A stretch of 64,000 nucleotides of DNA. Source: a virus. A program made the position numbers and the translations under genes. The notes under the pieces are model-generated. The model did not search any database. It had not been told where the DNA came from and saw only the letters and a program-made list of their open reading frames with translations. Location of the stretch: the IMG/VR virus record IMGVR_UViG_3300025881_000002. The stretch is one strand, 5' to 3'. Below, in pieces: positions 6,978 through 26,582 of this stretch (the first letter of the stretch is position 1; every line of letters begins with the position of its first letter).

Positions 6978-7420
6978 TTTAATAATTTTGTTAAGTTTTC
7001 TAAATTATATTCTGGTTCTCTAAAACCTTTTACCTTCATTTTATTTAAATTATTATGAGGTACAGAATTTAATTTTATTAAAAAAGGATATTTAATATCT
7101 CTACCGTGTGATTCCAATCTTATAACAGAATTATAAAAAACAAAACCTTGTCTATCTCCACAATATCTACCTGTTACATTAGAACTTAAAAGATATTTTT
7201 TAAGAATAGTAAAAAATCTTTTTTTAGTTAATGAAGAATAATAAGTTTTACAAACATTATATAAATCAATTATAGATCTTTGAAGAGAAATACAATGAGG
7301 TTGATTACACTCATAATTTTTATAAGTATATTGACATCCATATCTTCTACTTTCAAAAAACCATTTTATAAAATCTTTTATATATCTAGGTTTTTTTTCT
7401 ATTTTTACATATAATTTCAT
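6974..7420 (-). CDS. hypothetical protein (Cys-rich, basic) inside the ligase operon
   Basis: 148-aa ORF. Its stop overlaps the ATP-grasp start. No recognisable motif. Confidence 0.5.
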   Translation of the reverse strand: MKLYVKIEKKPRYIKDFIKWFFESRRYGCQYTYKNYECNQPHCISLQRSIIDLYNVCKTYYSSLTKKRFFTILKKYLLSSNVTGRYCGDRQGFVFYNSVIRLESHGRDIKYPFLIKLNSVPHNNLNKMKVKGFREPEYNLENLTKLLK

Positions 7421-9628: not shown

Positions 9629-9841
9629 TTAAGAATAATATTCTGTTATAGCGTTATTGACTATTATAAGATCATTGTCTATGTTTTCTTCTTCAAACAT
9701 ACCCATTGGTGTCTTACATGTGTCATCTCCTCCTGTAACTGTTCTAAATACGTATTGAACAGGATTTCCTGGACTTTTAACAGCTTCTGCATAAAGTACT
9801 ATACTTGAAAAACTTTCTGGGAAGAATTTCTTAATTTGTTT
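9629..9841 (-). CDS. Sak4/AAA_24-like RecA-type ATPase, exon 2
   Basis: KQIKKFFPESFSSIVLYAEAV...YVFRTVTGGDDTCKTPMGMF continues the AAA_24 C-terminal pattern after exon 1 ends at ...AVQG. Confidence 0.65.
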   Translation of the reverse strand, partial: KQIKKFFPESFSSIVLYAEAVKSPGNPVQYVFRTVTGGDDTCKTPMGMFEEENIDNDLIIVNNAITEYYS

Positions 9842-9883
9842 CATTTTTACATATACATTTTCATATATATACCGACTATATCT

Positions 9884-10657
9884 TTATTCACGTTCATAAC
9901 TCCAATAATAACCTTTGAAAAAACCAGTTTTACGTATATAATAAGATAATGTACCACTACTTCCATTTACAGATTCTGCTGCTTTTTTAACAGAATTATA
10001 ATTAGTAATGTATTTTTTATCTTTAGTATATTGATATACTTTTTTTCTAGTTTTAACTTTTTTAATATAAGGTTTTATTTTTTTAGGATAATTTTTAGTA
10101 AAATATACAAATTGTTTATTTTTACATATTCTATTATCAGATTGCAAACAATGATATATAGAACTTGAAGTTACATTTAATTCTTTAGAGGCTTCTAAAG
10201 AACTATTATGTATTTTTTCAAAGTTACCATTAATATCATACTGAACTATTTTCTTTTTATTTAAATTTAAATTATATAGTTCAACTCTATCTGCTTTTTT
10301 TTGAATATTATATCCATTTTTTCTATTATAAGGTTTTAATTTATCTAAATAATATTGTTCTAATTCTATTATTTTATTTTTATCTATACATATTTTAATT
10401 ATATTAAATTCAATATTATCATTACCATATTTATTAAATGCATTTTGCAAATAATTATTAGGATGAATATTTTGTTTTAATAATCTTAAATGTTTAGACC
10501 ATCTACAATAAAATCCTTTATCAGAAATTTTATTAGACTTTAAACCTGCTATAGTAGAACCAATATATATTTTATTAGTTCCTTTAAAAGTTATGTTGTA
10601 AATACCAGTAGAACTAAGTTCTTCTATATTTACAAATTTTAATAGTTGTTTCTTCAT
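9884..10657 (-). CDS. GIY-YIG homing endonuclease with NUMOD-like C-terminal DNA-binding repeats
   Basis: GIYNITF...KIYIGST...RWSKH...NAFNKYG...EQYYL...GYNI. The start is set at MKKQLL because a TATCTTTG -7 box lies 4 nt upstream. Confidence 0.85.
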   Translation of the reverse strand: MKKQLLKFVNIEELSSTGIYNITFKGTNKIYIGSTIAGLKSNKISDKGFYCRWSKHLRLLKQNIHPNNYLQNAFNKYGNDNIEFNIIKICIDKNKIIELEQYYLDKLKPYNRKNGYNIQKKADRVELYNLNLNKKKIVQYDINGNFEKIHNSSLEASKELNVTSSSIYHCLQSDNRICKNKQFVYFTKNYPKKIKPYIKKVKTRKKVYQYTKDKKYITNYNSVKKAAESVNGSSGTLSYYIRKTGFFKGYYWSYERE

Positions 10658-10661
10658 AATA

Positions 10662-10669
10662 CAAAGATA
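10662..10669 (-). promoter_or_regulatory. Bacteroidetes-type -7 box (TATCTTTG) for the intron endonuclease
   Basis: The 20-mer TTGTATCTTTGTATTATGAA is identical to the plus-strand promoter/start at 36636-36655. Confidence 0.5.
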
Positions 10670-10906
10670 CAACAAAAATTCGTGAATACCTACTTTTTCA
10701 ATATAAATTTTATACTAATAATTTATACTTACTCCCTCACGGGATAGTCTGTGAACGTTCTCTATTTTAAAAGAGCTTCGCTGCTGATTATCTAATCTTA
10801 TATATTTTTAAACATTCACGCTTATCATTTATGATTACGTTGTAGTTATATAAGCTTAAAGACGTTCCAGCAATTAAATAGGTTTAATCAGGGCAAACAT
10901 TAATCA

Positions 10907-11365
10907 ACCCTGCACAGCTATTTCCATTCTAGGAAAGCCTGATTCATCATATACTATTTCAGGATGACAAAATAAATATACTACTAAATCATCTCTCAAC
11001 TTTTCGTTGATAATATTAATAAGTTTATAATGACTAAATGAGAAATTACCCCATTTTTCAAAACCTTTATTTTTTACAAAGCTAGGCGCCATTACTCCAT
11101 CAGTCATCATCCTACTCCAAGTATCAATTATAACTGTATTTACATTATCATTACTTTGTACTTCTTTTAATTTTGTTATTACTTCATCTACATTACTTGT
11201 TTGTAAGTAATTTCCTTTTTCTTCACTGTATTTGCTACGAAATTTAGGAAATGGTAAATCTTTTTGATCAGAATTTATAATCACAGTTTTATCTGGATCT
11301 AAATTTCTTGCACTAGTTGATTTACCCATTCCTGATTTCCCAACAATAAATACTAATTGTCCCAT
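10907..11365 (-). CDS. Sak4/AAA_24-like RecA-type ATPase, exon 1
   Basis: Walker A VGKSGMGKST, Walker B-like VIIDTWS, LVVYLFCHPE. The ORF ends in a stop directly after the P1 U. Confidence 0.7.
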
Positions 11366-12390: not shown

Positions 12391-12431
12391 CATTTTATTC
12401 CATAAAGTGCGTAACTACTTTATGCGTTTAA

Positions 12432-12668
12432 TTATAATTCTATTAAATTATACTCATTTTCATCATTGTTGTTTTCTAAATAAATATAAATTTCCTCTTC
12501 AGAATTAGTTTCAGTTTTAGCTTCTATTTGACACACTTCTATTAAATTCATAGCTTGAGTATCTATATCATAAACTGTTATTGTTTTCCAACCTGTAGTT
12601 TCTTCTATATTTTCTTCTAAATCAATTTGCTGTAGATGTTTTTCTACTACATAATATAAATTTTGCAT
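12432..12668 (-). CDS. small highly acidic protein encoded inside the thyA intron (P9 region)
   Basis: 78-aa ORF, Glu/Asp/Asn-rich, with no endonuclease motif. It lies between P9 and the terminal intron hairpin. Confidence 0.45.
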   Translation of the reverse strand: MQNLYYVVEKHLQQIDLEENIEETTGWKTITVYDIDTQAMNLIEVCQIEAKTETNSEEEIYIYLENNNDENEYNLIEL

Positions 12669-12798
12669 AATTTTTTATTTTTTATTAATTAAACTGCTGC
12701 ATATTACTATGCAGATTAGACTATATCTTCACTCATTTCTGAGGACTAGCGTTTCCAATCACTTGATTGTACTCCCATAAGGGATAGTCGTTCGGCAT

Positions 12799-13482
12799 TT
12801 ATTTTTTATAAAATTGTGGATAATTTTTGGATTTTACTCTATTTTGAATAGCAGTTATAGACATATTATAATATCTTGCTGCTTCTGCATAAGAAGGAAA
12901 TTCTTTTTGTTCACATATAATTATATGACCTTGATTAATACCTTCTTTATACAGTTTATTTTCATCTTTTTCTTCTCCTATAATGTTCCAATTTCTAAAT
13001 TTACTATTTAATGATTTACATCTATATCTAATAGTTGTAACTGGTAAATTTAAAGCAATTGAGGCTTTATTAAAAGAATTAAATATTTCACCATTTATAT
13101 TAACAGAAATAGCATTTCCAGGTAAACTACCTTTTCTACTTTCTGATATTTTTTTATAAACTTCTTTTTGTCTTTTTAATGGAAATGTTTTTATTATATC
13201 TCCACCAACAGAATTTGGTGATATATTATAAGATTTTGTAAAATCTAAATTATCTAGAAACTCTTGTTCAGTTTCTTTAATATTATTAACTTCAGCTATT
13301 ATTTTAAATTCAAAAAATTCTTCACCATGTTTATTATAAGAACTCTGTAAATGTTTATTTACATGTTTATTAGCTCTTAAATGCCATAAATGTTGTTTTT
13401 TTCTTGTTTTAAAATCAACTGTACTACCAATATAATATTTATTGGTATTTAAATTTGTAATTTTGTAAATATAACCTTTCAT
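12799..13482 (-). CDS. GIY-YIG homing endonuclease (I-TevI-like arrangement)
   Basis: GYIYKITN...KYYIGST...RKKQH...SSYNKHG...EQEFL...YNISP. C-terminal HTH-like repeats. Located in the P6 loop of the td-like intron. Confidence 0.85.
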   Translation of the reverse strand: MKGYIYKITNLNTNKYYIGSTVDFKTRKKQHLWHLRANKHVNKHLQSSYNKHGEEFFEFKIIAEVNNIKETEQEFLDNLDFTKSYNISPNSVGGDIIKTFPLKRQKEVYKKISESRKGSLPGNAISVNINGEIFNSFNKASIALNLPVTTIRYRCKSLNSKFRNWNIIGEEKDENKLYKEGINQGHIIICEQKEFPSYAEAARYYNMSITAIQNRVKSKNYPQFYKK

Positions 13483-13497
13483 AAATTTGTATTTCTA

Positions 13498-13528
13498 CAA
13501 ATATACAAAATAGTTACCTATATTGCAA
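13498..13528 (-). promoter_or_regulatory. Bacteroidetes-type promoter for the intron endonuclease
   Basis: Minus strand reads CTTG, 20 nt, TATATTTG, 15 nt, ATG. Confidence 0.55.
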
Positions 13529-13648
13529 GTTATTTACTCATTATTTTATAATAATATTTATTATATAAAAAAATTTAGCACGGGATTGTCCTTAACTTAA
13601 TATTAGGAGTTTCCCCGTTTAACTAGTTTTAACCTCAGCTTACTACCT

Positions 13649-14874: not shown

Positions 14875-15636
14875 TTATAGTTCTAAGTTAATTATTTCAT
14901 TAATTGTAGTTTTCAAATCTACTGTAGAATCTTCTTTAGATTCATTCATTGATTCAAGGATCATATTACTTTTAATATTAGATAATGTATCAATAGTAGT
15001 TTTAGATTTTTCCATAAAATCAATCATATAAACTACATTTCCAATTAATTCTTTTATGTTATTTAATTCCTCAAGTTGATCTTTCAAAATTTGATCTAAT
15101 TCTTTCTTTTTTTCAGAAAGCACTTCTATTTCGATAATATTTTCACCTATTACTTTATATAAGCTAATATCATCAATTCTAACAGAATTACTTTTTCTAG
15201 CTGTCATTAACATTCTAGAATACAAACCTGATTTATTATCTACTTGAAGTCTACTATATGTGAAATTAACAGTGTTATAATCACTATTAGACATAAGTGC
15301 TATTTCTAATTTACCAGAATCGTTAATAAACACTTCAAAAGTCCATCTATCTCTTTTGTCTAGTTTATCTATAGAAAACATATGACCAGCTACATTATGA
15401 CCATTTGAATTTCTATTCATTTTAAAAAAATACTTTTGTTCTCTAGATTTTTTTACAAAATTTTCAAAAACATTATTTATAATTTCTAAAATTGGTGAAT
15501 ATACACCATCTGTACCTTCATCATTATAATCATTAATTAATTCATCATGATCTTCTCTTTCAAAAAGTTCTTTATTGATATTTTTATTTAAAATATCTTT
15601 TAAATTGCCTATATTTTTAGGTTCTTTCTCTTTCAT
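14875..15636 (-). CDS. hypothetical protein
   Basis: 253-aa ORF whose start overlaps the helicase stop. Confidence 0.55.
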   Translation of the reverse strand: MKEKEPKNIGNLKDILNKNINKELFEREDHDELINDYNDEGTDGVYSPILEIINNVFENFVKKSREQKYFFKMNRNSNGHNVAGHMFSIDKLDKRDRWTFEVFINDSGKLEIALMSNSDYNTVNFTYSRLQVDNKSGLYSRMLMTARKSNSVRIDDISLYKVIGENIIEIEVLSEKKKELDQILKDQLEELNNIKELIGNVVYMIDFMEKSKTTIDTLSNIKSNMILESMNESKEDSTVDLKTTINEIINLEL

Positions 15637-16570
15637 TTTTTATAAAATTTTTAATCTTATTCATTTCAGGAATATTAGTAGGTAAAGGAAGTTCTTTAAA
15701 AAAGTTTACAGCGCCATCAAAATATAATGGACATATACTATTTCCTCCTCCTTCACGTGAAGCTAATACTTCTAAAAACCTAATATTATCTTTAAAATAC
15801 ATTATGTTATAGCCATCCTTTTCAGGATATGTTTTTATTTTATGTCTATAAGGGCTAAATAAACCTAATACAACATCAGCATCTCTAGCAGTTAATTTAT
15901 TATCTGCAAGACCATCTAAACTAGGTTTAAGACGATTAGCTTTCATATTTTCAACTGATTCTTGAGCTGCTGATTGTTGTTGTATTACTACAGGTATAAA
16001 ATTATATCTATTTCTAAGTTCTACTAAATAATTAGAAGATAACTTAGTTATAGTTTGATGTAATGTCATACCTTGTTCCTGATGCAATAATGATACGTGA
16101 TCAATGATCATTATAACATATTCATCAGGGTCATTAGGTTCATAATAATTAAATATTTCATTTTCATATTTTTCACCAGTCTTATTATCTTTAAAAGTCT
16201 TAGTGGTCATATGAATAGTACCATTTGCTCTAGCGTAGTTACGCATAAATTTGTAAATACCAGTAGGATTTTTAATATTATCAATAAATGTTACCACTTC
16301 TTGAAACTTATCAAAATGTTCTTTAGAACCTTCTACTTCATTTAGTATTTCTTCACTTACAGGATTTTTTACACTCCTTAGATTTTTTGGATCTATTTTA
16401 TATTTACCTTTAGATTTTACATATAAATAATTACATATAGATTGTCTAAGTTTTTGTTCTTTAGACATCTCTAATGAGAAATAAAATATTTTAAGTTTAA
16501 TATTAGTTTTATTGTTTATAATATAGTCAATTGGATTGTACATATACAACCAATCGCAAGCTTGTGATTT
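15617..16570 (-). CDS. DnaB/T7 gp4-like replicative helicase, exon 2
   Basis: Frame opens as KSQACDW... after an in-frame TAG. Contains FYFSLEMS, MIIDHVSLL (Walker B), VVIQQQS, LDGLADNKLTARDADVVLGL and REGGGN...FDGAVNFF. Confidence 0.8.
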   Translation of the reverse strand, partial: KSQACDWLYMYNPIDYIINNKTNIKLKIFYFSLEMSKEQKLRQSICNYLYVKSKGKYKIDPKNLRSVKNPVSEEILNEVEGSKEHFDKFQEVVTFIDNIKNPTGIYKFMRNYARANGTIHMTTKTFKDNKTGEKYENEIFNYYEPNDPDEYVIMIIDHVSLLHQEQGMTLHQTITKLSSNYLVELRNRYNFIPVVIQQQSAAQESVENMKANRLKPSLDGLADNKLTARDADVVLGLFSPYRHKIKTYPEKDGYNIMYFKDNIRFLEVLASREGGGNSICPLYFDGAVNFFKELPLPTNIPEMNKIKNFIKNERERT

Positions 16571-16645
16571 CTATTTGTTACTACCAGTTTTATCTGGCGG
16601 TATAGTCATTTCTGCTATACTCTATAATTTAATATAATTAAAAAA

Positions 16646-17320
16646 TTAGTGGTCTTCTTCCAATTGAGCTAAATCAACAATATCTTCAACATCGTCTTCT
16701 TCTTCTAACTCATCATAATCTACACCTTCTACAGGTGTTACAACTACTGTATAAATTACTATTGTATTACCTGAATTAGGATTATCTACAAAAGTTTCAT
16801 TTATAATAAAACCATTTTGTCTTAAATGAGCAACAGCTTGAGGTAAATAAGCATAGTTAGCACAATTAATATTTGTACTAATTAACATAGCTCCAATATC
16901 TCTTACTTGAGTACAATATTGAATAAATCTAGCTAATACTCTAACCCTAAGATCTTGTCTATCAGGTAAAGTTTGTACGAAATTTAACATTGTTGTTATA
17001 GCATTTATACTATGAATACCACAACTACAAGTAATTCTACCTAATGTTTCTGAAGTTTGTGTTGAATAATTTTGATTGTCAACTGTAATGCTAATTGATA
17101 TAACTCCAGCTTCAGTTCTAGTTATTCTTAATGTATTTAAAGCTACATCTGCTGTATCTTCATTAGGTACATCTCTGAATAGTTCTGCTGAATAACGTCT
17201 TATACTACCATTATCATTTTCTACGTTGTAAAAACCTCTTACAGGGTTATTAGCAACTGTGTATTCACCACCTTGTGTTAGTCTATATCTCTTTGGATTA
17301 ATACATACTACTTGTTTCAT
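16646..17320 (-). CDS. intron-borne protein of unknown function (GC-shifted, acidic C-terminal tail)
   Basis: 224-aa ORF downstream of the intron catalytic core. It uses far more Arg/Val/Thr/Gln codons than its neighbours. No GIY-YIG, HNH or LAGLIDADG motif. The tail is DYDELEEEDDVEDIVDLAQLEEDH. Confidence 0.6.
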   Translation of the reverse strand: MKQVVCINPKRYRLTQGGEYTVANNPVRGFYNVENDNGSIRRYSAELFRDVPNEDTADVALNTLRITRTEAGVISISITVDNQNYSTQTSETLGRITCSCGIHSINAITTMLNFVQTLPDRQDLRVRVLARFIQYCTQVRDIGAMLISTNINCANYAYLPQAVAHLRQNGFIINETFVDNPNSGNTIVIYTVVVTPVEGVDYDELEEEDDVEDIVDLAQLEEDH

Positions 17321-17673
17321 CTTTAATTTAGTTTTAATTTAATTTTTAATTATTTTATTTTTATAGTTCGGACTATCTCATTATCCTACTAATTCACGTC
17401 TTTTTCCAGACACAGTTAGTTCAGGATATTCCTTGTTAGTCTCTACACCGTTTTGTAATATATGTTTAATAAAATCTGTAATTATTAAAGCGTCTTTTCT
17501 TTCAAGATTCTTATTTTTTATATAATTTATAGATTCATTTTTAATACTATCAAGTGACGGCACGGGATTGCCATTATTACATTTACACATAATTCTTATT
17601 TTAATGGGTTTCCCCGTTTAATAATATACTATTATTTTTTATGTATATTATCATATTTAGTTTATTTTAGTTA

Positions 17674-18483
17674 TTATTCTTCTAATTTTGCTAGAGCATT
17701 ATACATTGTACCATATCTCTTAAATTTAGATATTTTTAATTGTTTTTTAGCTCTTAAAATTTTATTATCAAAATATTCATTAACTTCTTGTTCATTTTTT
17801 AATTTTGAAGTTTTTAGTTTTAATGAATAAAGGCTATTTGAACCAGAACTATTACAATATATAAAACCTTTATTATATTTATCCAAATATTCTTTTTCAG
17901 AAGAAAATATAGCTTTATAATTTGCTTGTTGATAAGGTCTATTATAATCTTTTATATTTTGAATAGTTCTTCTTTTAGTAGCATCATATATATTATTACT
18001 TACATTAATTAATTTTGAATAATTACTCATTAATGAATAATTACAATTAAATCTTCTAATTTTACTAAGAACTTCAGATAACTGAATAGCTTGAAATATA
18101 CCTAAATTAGATCTTTCAATTATGTCATATAATAATTCTAATCTTTTTTTTAAATTACTATTTGAAAGTCTAATTATTCTAAAAGCAAATATTGCTTTAT
18201 ATTTAGCATCAAATTGTACTATATAATCATTTATAAAAGTACCTTGTAATTTTTCTATTATATCTTTTAACTTAGGATTTTTAATAAAAAATTCTGTATC
18301 ATCAACTTCTAATGTATTAAATTTAATACTATTATTAGTATATTGTGTAAAATAATCTGCACAATCTAATGTTCTTTTATTTACATTATAACTTTCACTA
18401 TTGCTTTTTTTACCATCTTTTGATAATTGGTATCTATATATTCTCATCAACTTTATTTTTAAACTAAATAATTCGGAATTCAA
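17674..18483 (-). CDS. intron-borne protein of unknown function (no His residues, no known endonuclease motif)
   Basis: 269-aa ORF between P1/P2 and the P3-P9 core. The ORF track start is TTG. The first ATG (MRIYRY) is 12 codons in. Confidence 0.5.
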   Translation of the reverse strand: MNSELFSLKIKLMRIYRYQLSKDGKKSNSESYNVNKRTLDCADYFTQYTNNSIKFNTLEVDDTEFFIKNPKLKDIIEKLQGTFINDYIVQFDAKYKAIFAFRIIRLSNSNLKKRLELLYDIIERSNLGIFQAIQLSEVLSKIRRFNCNYSLMSNYSKLINVSNNIYDATKRRTIQNIKDYNRPYQQANYKAIFSSEKEYLDKYNKGFIYCNSSGSNSLYSLKLKTSKLKNEQEVNEYFDNKILRAKKQLKISKFKRYGTMYNALAKLEE

Positions 18484-18516
18484 CTATATATTACTATATA
18501 GAGGGGCAAATCATTT

Positions 18517-18690
18517 ACCAACTTTACTGTTTGCTGTAACTATACTATATGTACCCTGTTCAATACCAGGAAGTTCATTACTGAATCTTGGTAATTTGAA
18601 TGGTATACAATTTAATTTACCTGAAAGGGATCTCTCTCTTCTTTTTAATAAGTCTCTACGTACTCTATCAAATAAATTATCGTTACTCAT
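18517..18690 (-). CDS. DnaB/T7 gp4-like replicative helicase, exon 1
   Basis: Not in the ORF track because it is under 60 aa. Translates as MSNDNLFDRVRRDLLKRRERSLSGKLNCIPFKLPRFSNELPGIEQGTYSIVTANSKVG, followed by K and a stop. This is the Walker A lead-in. Confidence 0.75.
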
Positions 18691-26351: not shown

Positions 26352-26425
26352 TGATTCTGCTAGGATTTGAACCTAGAACCTTCTCCTTAGAAGGGAGATG
26401 CTCTATCCAGTTGAGCTACAGAACC
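26352..26425 (-). tRNA. tRNA-Arg (anticodon TCT)
   Basis: The reverse complement folds as a cloverleaf: acceptor GGTTCTG/CAGAATC, D arm GCTC-AACTGGATA-GAGC, anticodon arm TCTCC-CTTCTAA-GGAGA, T arm CTAGG-TTCAAAT-CCTAG. Confidence 0.9.
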
Positions 26426-26509: not shown

Positions 26510-26582
26510 TGGTCCCAAACAGATTTGAACTGCTGACCTATCCGTTATGAGCGGATTGCTCTACCAACTGAGCTATGAGACC
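26510..26582 (-). tRNA. tRNA with CAT anticodon (elongator Met or Ile2; not initiator-like)
   Basis: Acceptor GGTCTCA/TGGGACC, D arm GCTC-AGTTGGTA-GAGC, anticodon arm ATCCG-CTCATAA-CGGAT, T arm AGCAG-TTCAAAT-CTGTT. Has a G1-C72 pair and no GGG/CCC anticodon stem. Confidence 0.85.

Follow-up and report, generated by a model that had tools for sequence, protein, structure and literature searches.

A predicted group I intron carrying unrecognised genes within the Walker A motif of a crAss-like phage replicative helicase

The stretch of viral DNA analysed here, 64,000 nucleotides (nt) of IMG/VR record IMGVR_UViG_3300025881_000002 (hereafter the window), derives from a marine crAss-like phage whose gene for the replicative helicase is interrupted on the minus strand within its Walker A motif by a 1,946-nt insert. 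In exon 1, the sequence ...TANSKVG is followed in frame by AAA TGA, and an in-frame TAG (16573-16571) stands immediately 5' of the AAA TCA CAA... with which exon 2 opens at 16570. The insertion point separates the Walker A codons for G and K (ANSKVG and KS), and joining GGU to AAAUCA restores the motif and gives a spliced product of 375 amino acids (aa). Pfam DnaB_C matches this product across the junction, and its alignment with five uninterrupted helicases, a set that includes crAss001, cr108_1 and metagenomic phages, contains no indel at TANSKVGK[ST]Q. An earlier note on this DNA, made from the letters alone, had proposed a helicase split in Walker A, with an exon at 18517-18690, a junction that rebuilds G-K-S and a 1946-nt insert ending in G; all of this is borne out, the insert spanning 18516-16571. 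Comparison with intron-less helicase alleles, which the same note had suggested, likewise found the spliced product colinear, with no gap at the junction.

Both exons are under strong purifying selection in many insert-bearing phages, with NG86 ratios of nonsynonymous to synonymous substitution (dN/dS) of 0.06-0.3, which argues against a dead gene. We consider it about 85% probable, on the strength of sequence comparison, that the insert is a group I self-splicing intron within the Walker A motif of a DnaB-type helicase, in a marine crAss-like phage related to Cellulophaga phage phi14:2. A literature search found no account of introns in the Walker A motif of phage helicases.

The ribozyme comprises three blocks: P1, P2 and the 5' strand of P3; a hairpin followed by P4-P6, P7, P3', P8, P7' and the 5' strand of P9; and the 3' strand of P9 with P9.1 and P9.2 (Table 1). 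By comparison of relatives, the helices from P2, which has a GNRA loop, to P9.2 follow the canonical group I order, including the P3/P7 pseudoknot. The earlier note had confined the core to a block of about 300 nt in the middle of the insert, a view that has to be given up, as the first block lies upstream of the open reading frame (ORF) that we call ORF-A and the third downstream of a second, ORF-B. Its td-like P4-P6 motif shared with the thyA intron, and the accompanying P7-like strands, could be placed: the motif AAACGGGGAA...CAAUCCCGUGC occupies 17619-17560, and the thyA intron of the window repeats it almost unchanged at 13619-13578. ORF-A and ORF-B occupy peripheral positions, and the core should stay undisturbed by them. 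The 15-nt arms that bracket ORF-B are 93% complementary (inverted repeat I8) and extend P9.

At the 5' end, P1 is formed by three exon pairs (GGU with GCC, including a U•G wobble) and three intron pairs, such that exon GGU and intron AAA face UUUGCC. The U18517•G18507 wobble is unchanged in 14 of the 14 relatives whose 5' end is known. In the consensus, exon ...GUGGGU is followed by intron AGA..UUUGCCCC, and in the window exon ...GUUGGU is followed by AAAUGAUUUGCCCC; the relatives' P1 reads GGGU/GCCC. The guide tracks exon 2, with GAUUU opposite AAAUC and UUUU opposite AAAAC, the latter in relatives whose exon 2 reads AAAACU (K-T). The guanosine-binding P7, G[A]GACUA/UAGUCC with a bulged A, and J8/7 AUGAGA are conserved and resemble td at the level of sequence. 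A terminal G occurs at the 3' end of all inserts compared.

From this anatomy, we propose that the guide UGAUUUGCC would pair with the terminal GGU of exon 1, through the U•G wobble, to form P1, and that an external guanosine bound in P7 would cleave after U18517. The same guide would then position exon 2 (AAAUCA) through P10, and the terminal G16571 would occupy the G site, allowing the exons to be ligated to GGU-AAA-UCA and the 375-aa helicase to be made. ORF-A and ORF-B would be passengers rather than splicing factors, coming from a pool of variable small genes of the replisome-organizer/helicase interval or of intron loops, with ORF-B a stable companion of this helicase lineage.

Table 1. 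Features of the split helicase gene and its predicted intron; coordinates are those of the window.
Feature	Coordinates	Strand	Remarks
Helicase exon 1	18517..18690	-	58 codons, MSND...TANSKVG; last codon GGU 18519-18517; homologous to N-termini of uninterrupted helicases
Predicted group I intron	16571..18516	-	1,946 nt; terminal G at 16571
P1 hairpin	18505..18519	-	exon GGU and intron AAA pair with guide UGAUUUGCC (18513-18505)
P10			guide UGAUUU with exon 2 AAAUCA; 6 base pairs (bp); same guide sequence as P1
P2 hairpin	18484..18501	-	7 bp, GUAA tetraloop; compensatory changes at 7/7 pairs among relatives
P3 5' strand UUCC (18478-18475) and conserved GAAU	18471..18478	-	pairs with GGAA 17432-17429
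ORF-A	17674..18447	-	257 aa from ATG 18447 (269 aa if TTG 18483); P3-to-P4 connector
Hairpin, 10 bp	17620..17652	-	immediately upstream of J3/4-P4; relatives: one or two hairpins or other ORFs here
J3/4 AAA, P4 CGGGG (17616-17612), P5 CCAUUA/UAAUGG with P5a	within 17557..17619	-	
J5/4 CAA, P4' UCCCG (17567-17563), P6 5' strand GCCGU (17561-17557)	within 17557..17619	-	
Small core ORF	17381..17590	-	69 aa; overlaps P5'-P4'-P6-P7-P3'-P8
P6' ACGGU (17451-17447), J6/7, P7 G[A]GACUA (17443-17437), ACAA, P3' GGAA (17432-17429)	within 17367..17451	-	
P8 UAUCCU.../...AGGAUA (17428-17382), J8/7 AUGAGA, P7' UAGUCC (17375-17370)	within 17367..17451	-	
P9 5' strand CUAUAA (17366-17361) and 15-nt extension (17357-17343)	17343..17366	-	
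ORF-B	16646..17320	-	224 aa; looped out of extended P9
P9 3' strand: extension 16644-16630, UUAUAG 16627-16622	within 16571..16644	-	
P9.1 (16620-16600), P9.2 (16597-16584), tail and terminal G 16571		-	P9.1 loop CAGAAAUGA; tail UAGUAACAAAUAG
Helicase exon 2	15617..16570	-	opens AAA UCA (K-S), completing Walker A; KSQACDW...; 317 codons and stop

The fold was assessed in an alignment (A5) of 18 related introns, in which anchored core segments were aligned by hand and 63 pairs were tested. Of all tested cells, 95.6% pair, compared with 37-45% in controls whose 3' partners were displaced by 1-3 columns; changes on both sides occur at 31 of the 63 pairs, and none of 500 shuffles reached the observed values. 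Covariation is found in P2, P3, P5, P8, P9 and P9.1, and one P7 pair appears as A-U, G-C or U-A, while P4 and P6 are invariant and hence uninformative in this respect. For P3, the alternative pairings are UUCC/GGAA, CUCA/UGAG, UUCA/UGAA, CUCU/AGAG and GAUC/GAUC. This strand, UUCC right after P2, replaced a first placement of P3 immediately upstream of J3/4, which failed against the relatives. A minimum free energy fold of 17354-17660 alone recovers P4, P5, P6, P7 and P8 (z = -3.3).

The relation to known group I introns is closest for T4 td and td-type (IA2) introns, among them the window's thyA intron, which have near-identical J3/4-P4 (AAACGGGGAA), J5/4-P4' (GACAAUCCCGUGC) and J8/7-P7' (GAGAUAGUC). 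The bulged P7, the GNRA-capped P2, the GUGA-capped P9 (in relatives of the helicase intron) and insertion into a highly conserved motif of a DNA-metabolism gene are further points of likeness. The subgroup IA2 hallmark is nevertheless absent: the spacer from P7 to P3' is only ACAA in all 18 relatives, whereas T4 td and the thyA intron both contain P7.1 and P7.2 hairpins. P7.1 and P7.2 were sought in the helicase intron, and a reading that included them failed against the relatives. In further contrast to td, the 5' strand of P3 is parted from J3/4-P4 by hairpins or an ORF, and the ORFs lie outside P6, are not of the GIY-YIG type and number several per intron, with one of them conserved and overlapping the core. 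The description 'td-like' in the earlier note therefore stands for the sequence motifs and falls for the IA2 structure, with P7.1 and P7.2 missing.

Several points weigh against assigning the insert to the group I introns. The alignment was assembled by hand, with the best hairpin chosen as the P2 loop, and complementarity served in part to place the 5' strand of P3 in four of the relatives (L005, L006, L009 and L011), which biases those cells toward structure. The extra hairpins or ORF between P3 and J3/4, together with the lack of P7.1 and P7.2, would be unusual for a td-like intron, and our literature search found no account of helices between P3 and P4 in group I introns. ORF-B replaces the L9 tetraloop of the relatives, such that a tertiary contact may be lost, leaving some room for a protein helper. 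Lastly, and more weakly, the Rfam model RF00028 matched neither the intron nor its compact, ORF-poor relatives at E<10, and a scan of the whole window yielded no group I match either. The controls behaved no better: T4-type td scored 42.5 bits where the gathering cut-off is 50, and for the td-like thyA intron of the window no Rfam match was obtained at E<=1. Since td and thyA fail too, the Rfam negative is uninformative.

The same interruption recurs in related phages. The closest cultured relative, Cellulophaga phage phi14:2 (Crassvirales, Steigviridae), whose exon 2 is about 60% identical, has a 2.6-kb insert at the identical codon boundary. This intron is unannotated: the RefSeq record lists the helicase only as a truncated 280-aa DnaB, with exon 1 and the insert ORFs as hypothetical proteins. 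Megablast and blastn searches of the region and of the core gave no match in the phage collection, phi14:2 included, and a search with a 21-nt core motif returned 18 IMG/VR contigs, most with the helicase split here by inserts of 2.1-2.7 kb. Altogether, the helicase is split at this site in many marine viral contigs drawn from IMG/VR, JGI, ENA and Logan, and closer relatives (L021-L025, L029) were reached through look-ups of ORF-B homologues. The same core also occurs in other genes, namely those of a SNF2-type helicase (L008, L017) and polB (L010), and is kept without ORF-A and ORF-B in five cases (L004, L008, L016, L018, L019). Introns of relatives hold other ORF families, including canonical endonucleases in some (LAGLIDADG in L018, L023 and L025; GIY-YIG in L044). 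The window intron holds three ORFs and the relatives examined up to six, few of which match a known homing endonuclease family.

Individual relatives have features of their own. In L007/L020 (IMGVR_UViG_3300001605_000656, 3300002220_000062), two group I introns separated by 9 nt interrupt Walker A, in the order ...TANS, a 302-nt ORF-less td-like intron, the micro-exon AAAGUGGGU (K-V-G) and the multi-ORF helicase intron. L018 (IMGVR_UViG_3300037515_000316) has a LAGLIDADG ORF with flanks inside the P7' strand of its helicase intron, between UAGU and CC, and this insertion may be a nested element. Two close relatives of the window intron contain a LAGLIDADG_2 gene besides ORF-A and ORF-B (L023 4108-4725, L025 2792-3439).

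Turning to the coding content of the intron, the earlier note had listed two ORFs of 269 and 224 aa. The second, ORF-B, is retained as described, ORF-A is more likely 257 aa long, and a third ORF is present at 17590-17381. The most probable start of ORF-A is ATG 18447, as in its homologues, rather than TTG 18483. Relatives of ORF-A occupy the same intron position in phi14:2 (g025), L021-L023 and probably L025, and we found it in this intron only; word-indexed homologue searches, whether from the single sequence or from a profile of five sequences, found nothing beyond ORF-A itself and phi14:2 g025. No Pfam, PHROG, NCBIfam or PADLOC family matched either large ORF, in keeping with the earlier statement that they bear no GIY-YIG, HNH, LAGLIDADG or His-Cys signature; domains of the PD-(D/E)xK and EDxHD endonucleases, of maturases and of defence proteins were likewise not recognised in them. 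The structure model of ORF-A is unusable, with a predicted local distance difference test (pLDDT) score of 34. A comparison of the window with L021-L023 put the dN/dS of ORF-A at about 0.9-1.5, with dS similar to the values for the exons. At 30-45% identity these figures are rough, and ORF-A appears to evolve almost neutrally. Given that it is open over 257-316 codons in an AT-rich genome, something maintains it. A 221-aa ORF downstream of polB in L010 (817-1482, minus strand) has ORF-A motifs (ACADYF ... FRILRF), a weak resemblance with an hhalign probability of 9%.

The 69-aa ORF that overlaps the ribozyme core has the same frame open in 16 of the 18 relatives. The spacing from P4' to P6' takes ten different lengths (25-172 nt), every one of them 1 mod 3, and this constancy, together with the open frame, points to a coding constraint over the ribozyme core. 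In several relatives, the stretch that the P8 loop encodes is rich in Cys. An extra U in P4'/P6 breaks the frame in L023, and in L006 (IMGVR_UViG_3300028388_005288) an upstream domain, about 110 aa long, is joined in frame to the ORF and by eye shows what resembles a GNAT acetyltransferase motif (LRKGYA).

ORF-B, which has no PDB sequence match, gave a confident model (pLDDT 84) with an N-terminal SH3/Tudor-like small β-barrel similar to Pfam DUF6501 and a C-terminal α/β domain. Against PDB folds, nothing significant was found; the best matches, weak ones to the C-terminal domain, were GNAT-like (E ~1e-2, template-modelling (TM) score ~0.3). The structural check that the earlier note had proposed for both ORFs thus yields no endonuclease-fold match for ORF-B. 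Conserved residues are C6, Y12, L14-T15, Y20, N35-D36, Y43, L47-F48, S-C-G (99-101), S-T-N (148-150) and NPNSGN..I..W (180-190); they fit no known nuclease signature, and the C-terminal domain conserves only S, C, G, T and N. An acidic C-terminal tail is present in the window clade. The family comprises 586 clusters in a 50%-clustered library (E<=1e-3), nearly all about 200 aa long, and its DUF6501-like barrel is repeated in other phage proteins. A supposed ORF-B-like domain common to several cargo ORFs (SCG / STN / NPNSGN) was dropped, with hhalign probabilities mostly <3%.

Sampling of about 40 loci places ORF-B immediately or a short way upstream of a DnaB-like helicase gene; the exceptions are L010, where it lies in the polB intron, and L031 and L051, which have no helicase within 4 kb. 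Among 31 loci holding both ORF-B and the helicase, ORF-B is intron-borne in 14 and free-standing upstream of an unsplit Walker A in 13, and the free-standing form sits between the replisome-organizer and helicase genes. In L044, free-standing ORF-B neighbours a helicase gene that is interrupted close to this site by an intron with a GIY-YIG gene and no ORF-B. Clustering of the helicases cleanly separates intron-borne from free-standing forms, and the identity of ORF-B between loci rises with that of the helicase (Spearman 0.56, Mantel p = 0.001). Mean identity is 57% for free-standing ORF-B (helicase 68%) and 33% for the intron-borne form (helicase 66%), and the dN/dS of ORF-B is 0.35-0.8 compared with 0.09-0.16 for exon 2. 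The same two settings are seen for a second family (about 150 aa), whose members stand free in the replisome-organizer/helicase interval or lie within a related intron, in its P9 loop. Free-standing ORF-B is flanked by members of this family (motif ...RSFxDL...) in L041 (3166-3594 and 4654-5118) and L015 (4901-5356); in L007, their homologue is the ORF in the P9 loop of the helicase intron (E 1e-9 to 7e-11), and a free-standing copy lies in the window at 7049-7381.

What happens to the insert, and whether its genes take part, can be read in other ways. It is very improbable that the insert stays in the RNA, leaving a decayed or split helicase, or that it is an intein, a group II intron or an element excised from DNA. 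The lack of an Rfam match would agree with such a reading. Splicing, like any function of the ORFs, we infer from sequence, whereas the anatomy, the covariation, the conservation of the site, and the distribution and rates of the ORFs are direct observations. Against a retained or otherwise removed insert, the exons are intact and constrained, Walker A is broken unless they are joined, and a pseudoknotted group I fold covaries. An intein, split inteins included, is excluded by stops at both junctions (TGA one codon past exon 1, TAG right before exon 2), a group II intron was rejected with no group II Rfam match and no reverse-transcriptase ORF or domain, and excision at the DNA level was rejected too, the insert having neither direct nor inverted repeats at its termini. 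The earlier note had seen P1 as weak and suggested that splicing may need a protein cofactor, which one of the cargo ORFs could supply as a maturase. In the window the guide pairs with just three bases of exon 1, ORF-B takes the place of the GNRA-capped L9 of relatives and ORF-A is confined to this intron, all of which would suit a maturase, but P1 and P10 together provide 3+3+6 pairs on one guide, and the relatives' P1 is GGGU/GCCC. Neither ORF has a LAGLIDADG or other maturase-type domain, and the dN/dS of ORF-A, near 1, would be odd for a protein obliged to fit a highly conserved RNA. Because relatives with the same core have neither ORF, and in them the fold can depend on neither, we regard a maturase role as improbable and retain self-splicing.

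For ORF-B, two roles deserve consideration. That it works together with the helicase, as a loader, regulator or other replisome accessory, and in one lineage came to be housed in the intron of the helicase and so co-transcribed with it, has in our estimate somewhat less than an even chance. The position of ORF-B next upstream of the helicase, with the three exceptions given, argues for this, as do the correlation of its identity with that of the helicase, the better conservation of free-standing than of intron-borne copies at similar helicase divergence, and the acidic tail of the window clade. In Bacillus phage SPP1, the helicase loader gene reportedly lies between the replisome-organizer and helicase genes, the interval in which free-standing ORF-B is found. 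On the other hand, ORF-B is absent from many phages with close helicases (L004, L005, L007, L008, L016-L019, cr108_1, crAss001), its constraint is relaxed, it resembles no known loader, the entry of an ordinary gene into an intron loop requires a special event, and the same interval houses other variable small genes too. More doubtfully, ORF-B, and possibly ORF-A, could be a homing or mobility protein of a new family that was at first free-standing beside its target, the helicase Walker A, and later entered the P9 loop. Bonocora and Shub are said to have proposed such a route for the origin of mobile group I introns. Three stages of it can be discerned, with ORF-B beside an intron-less helicase (L015, L041, L027), beside an ORF-B-less intron (L044) and intron-borne (the window, phi14:2 and others). 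A relative inside the polB intron, the filling of the P9 slot in other relatives by a LAGLIDADG gene or other ORFs, fast evolution with patchy presence, and a barrel repeated in other phage proteins, as with DNA-binding modules, are also consistent with mobility. Opposed to it are the lack of a nuclease motif or fold and the fact that the introns of L023 and L025 house a canonical LAGLIDADG gene alongside ORF-B. Moreover, ORF-B co-diverges with the helicase and its states follow helicase clustering, which suggests long vertical inheritance with few moves, unlike an invade-decay-loss cycle. We tentatively suggest that ORF-B represents a large, structurally unassigned new family (at least 586 clusters) tied functionally to the DnaB-type helicase of marine crAss-like phages, as an accessory or as a mobility protein without a nuclease fold, and that intron loops serve as a landing pad for the small genes of this interval.

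Parallels to parts of this arrangement exist elsewhere. Group I introns in core genes of crAss-like phages are already known and were found through their endonuclease domains (Yutin et al. 2021, PMC7886860). The window likewise contains at least three, the split genes being helicase, thyA and the Sak4-like ATPase, but its helicase intron has no endonuclease domain, so that a domain-based screen would miss it. In the cyanophage psbA system, the free-standing homing endonuclease F-CphI reportedly works in partnership with an intron. ORF-B resembles this type in occurring beside an intron-less target, beside an intron-containing gene and within an intron, and differs in having no recognised nuclease domain and in co-diverging with the helicase instead of moving frequently. 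In fungal mitochondria, rps3, a gene of host function, resides within a group I intron of the large-subunit rRNA; the helicase intron similarly keeps a non-endonuclease gene stably in a peripheral loop, but in a phage host and with several unrelated ORFs in one intron. Inteins and split inteins are found within the ATPase motifs of helicases of the DnaB and gp41 types, where, too, a selfish element occupies the best-conserved region of a replicative helicase; here, with flanking stops and no intein blocks, removal must be at the RNA level.

The other introns of the window are of a more familiar kind. The thyA gene is split after ...DTFLG (~12391-13646, minus strand) by an intron whose core is almost identical to that of T4 td, with P7.1 and P7.2 present, and whose cargo consists of a GIY-YIG ORF (12799-13482) and a 78-aa ORF (12432-12668). 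A third group I intron appears to split the Sak4-like ATPase gene (~9845-10903, minus strand), with P7 GACUAUCCC and P7' AUAUAGUC; it separates exon 1 (10904-11365, ...AVQG) from exon 2 (~9629-9844) and carries a GIY-YIG ORF (9884-10675). Two tRNA genes lie on the minus strand at 26352-26425 and 26510-26582, with Rfam scores of 71.8 and 69.8 bits.

What appears to be new here is an unannotated intron family that lacks the IA2 hallmark helices and has ORFs between P3 and P4, an ORF overlapping the core and, in the window, cargo that matches no known family. For phi14:2-like crAss phages, the finding means that the replicative helicase is mis-annotated as a truncated protein. The intron family escapes screens that rely on endonuclease domains or Rfam, and a covariance model built from the A5 alignment would detect these introns. 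The co-divergence of ORF-B with the helicase, in both its free and its embedded forms, offers a concrete case of how genes enter intron loops and opens the question of whether intron passengers serve the phage or only themselves. As phi14:2 and its host Cellulophaga baltica are in culture, that question is accessible to experiment.

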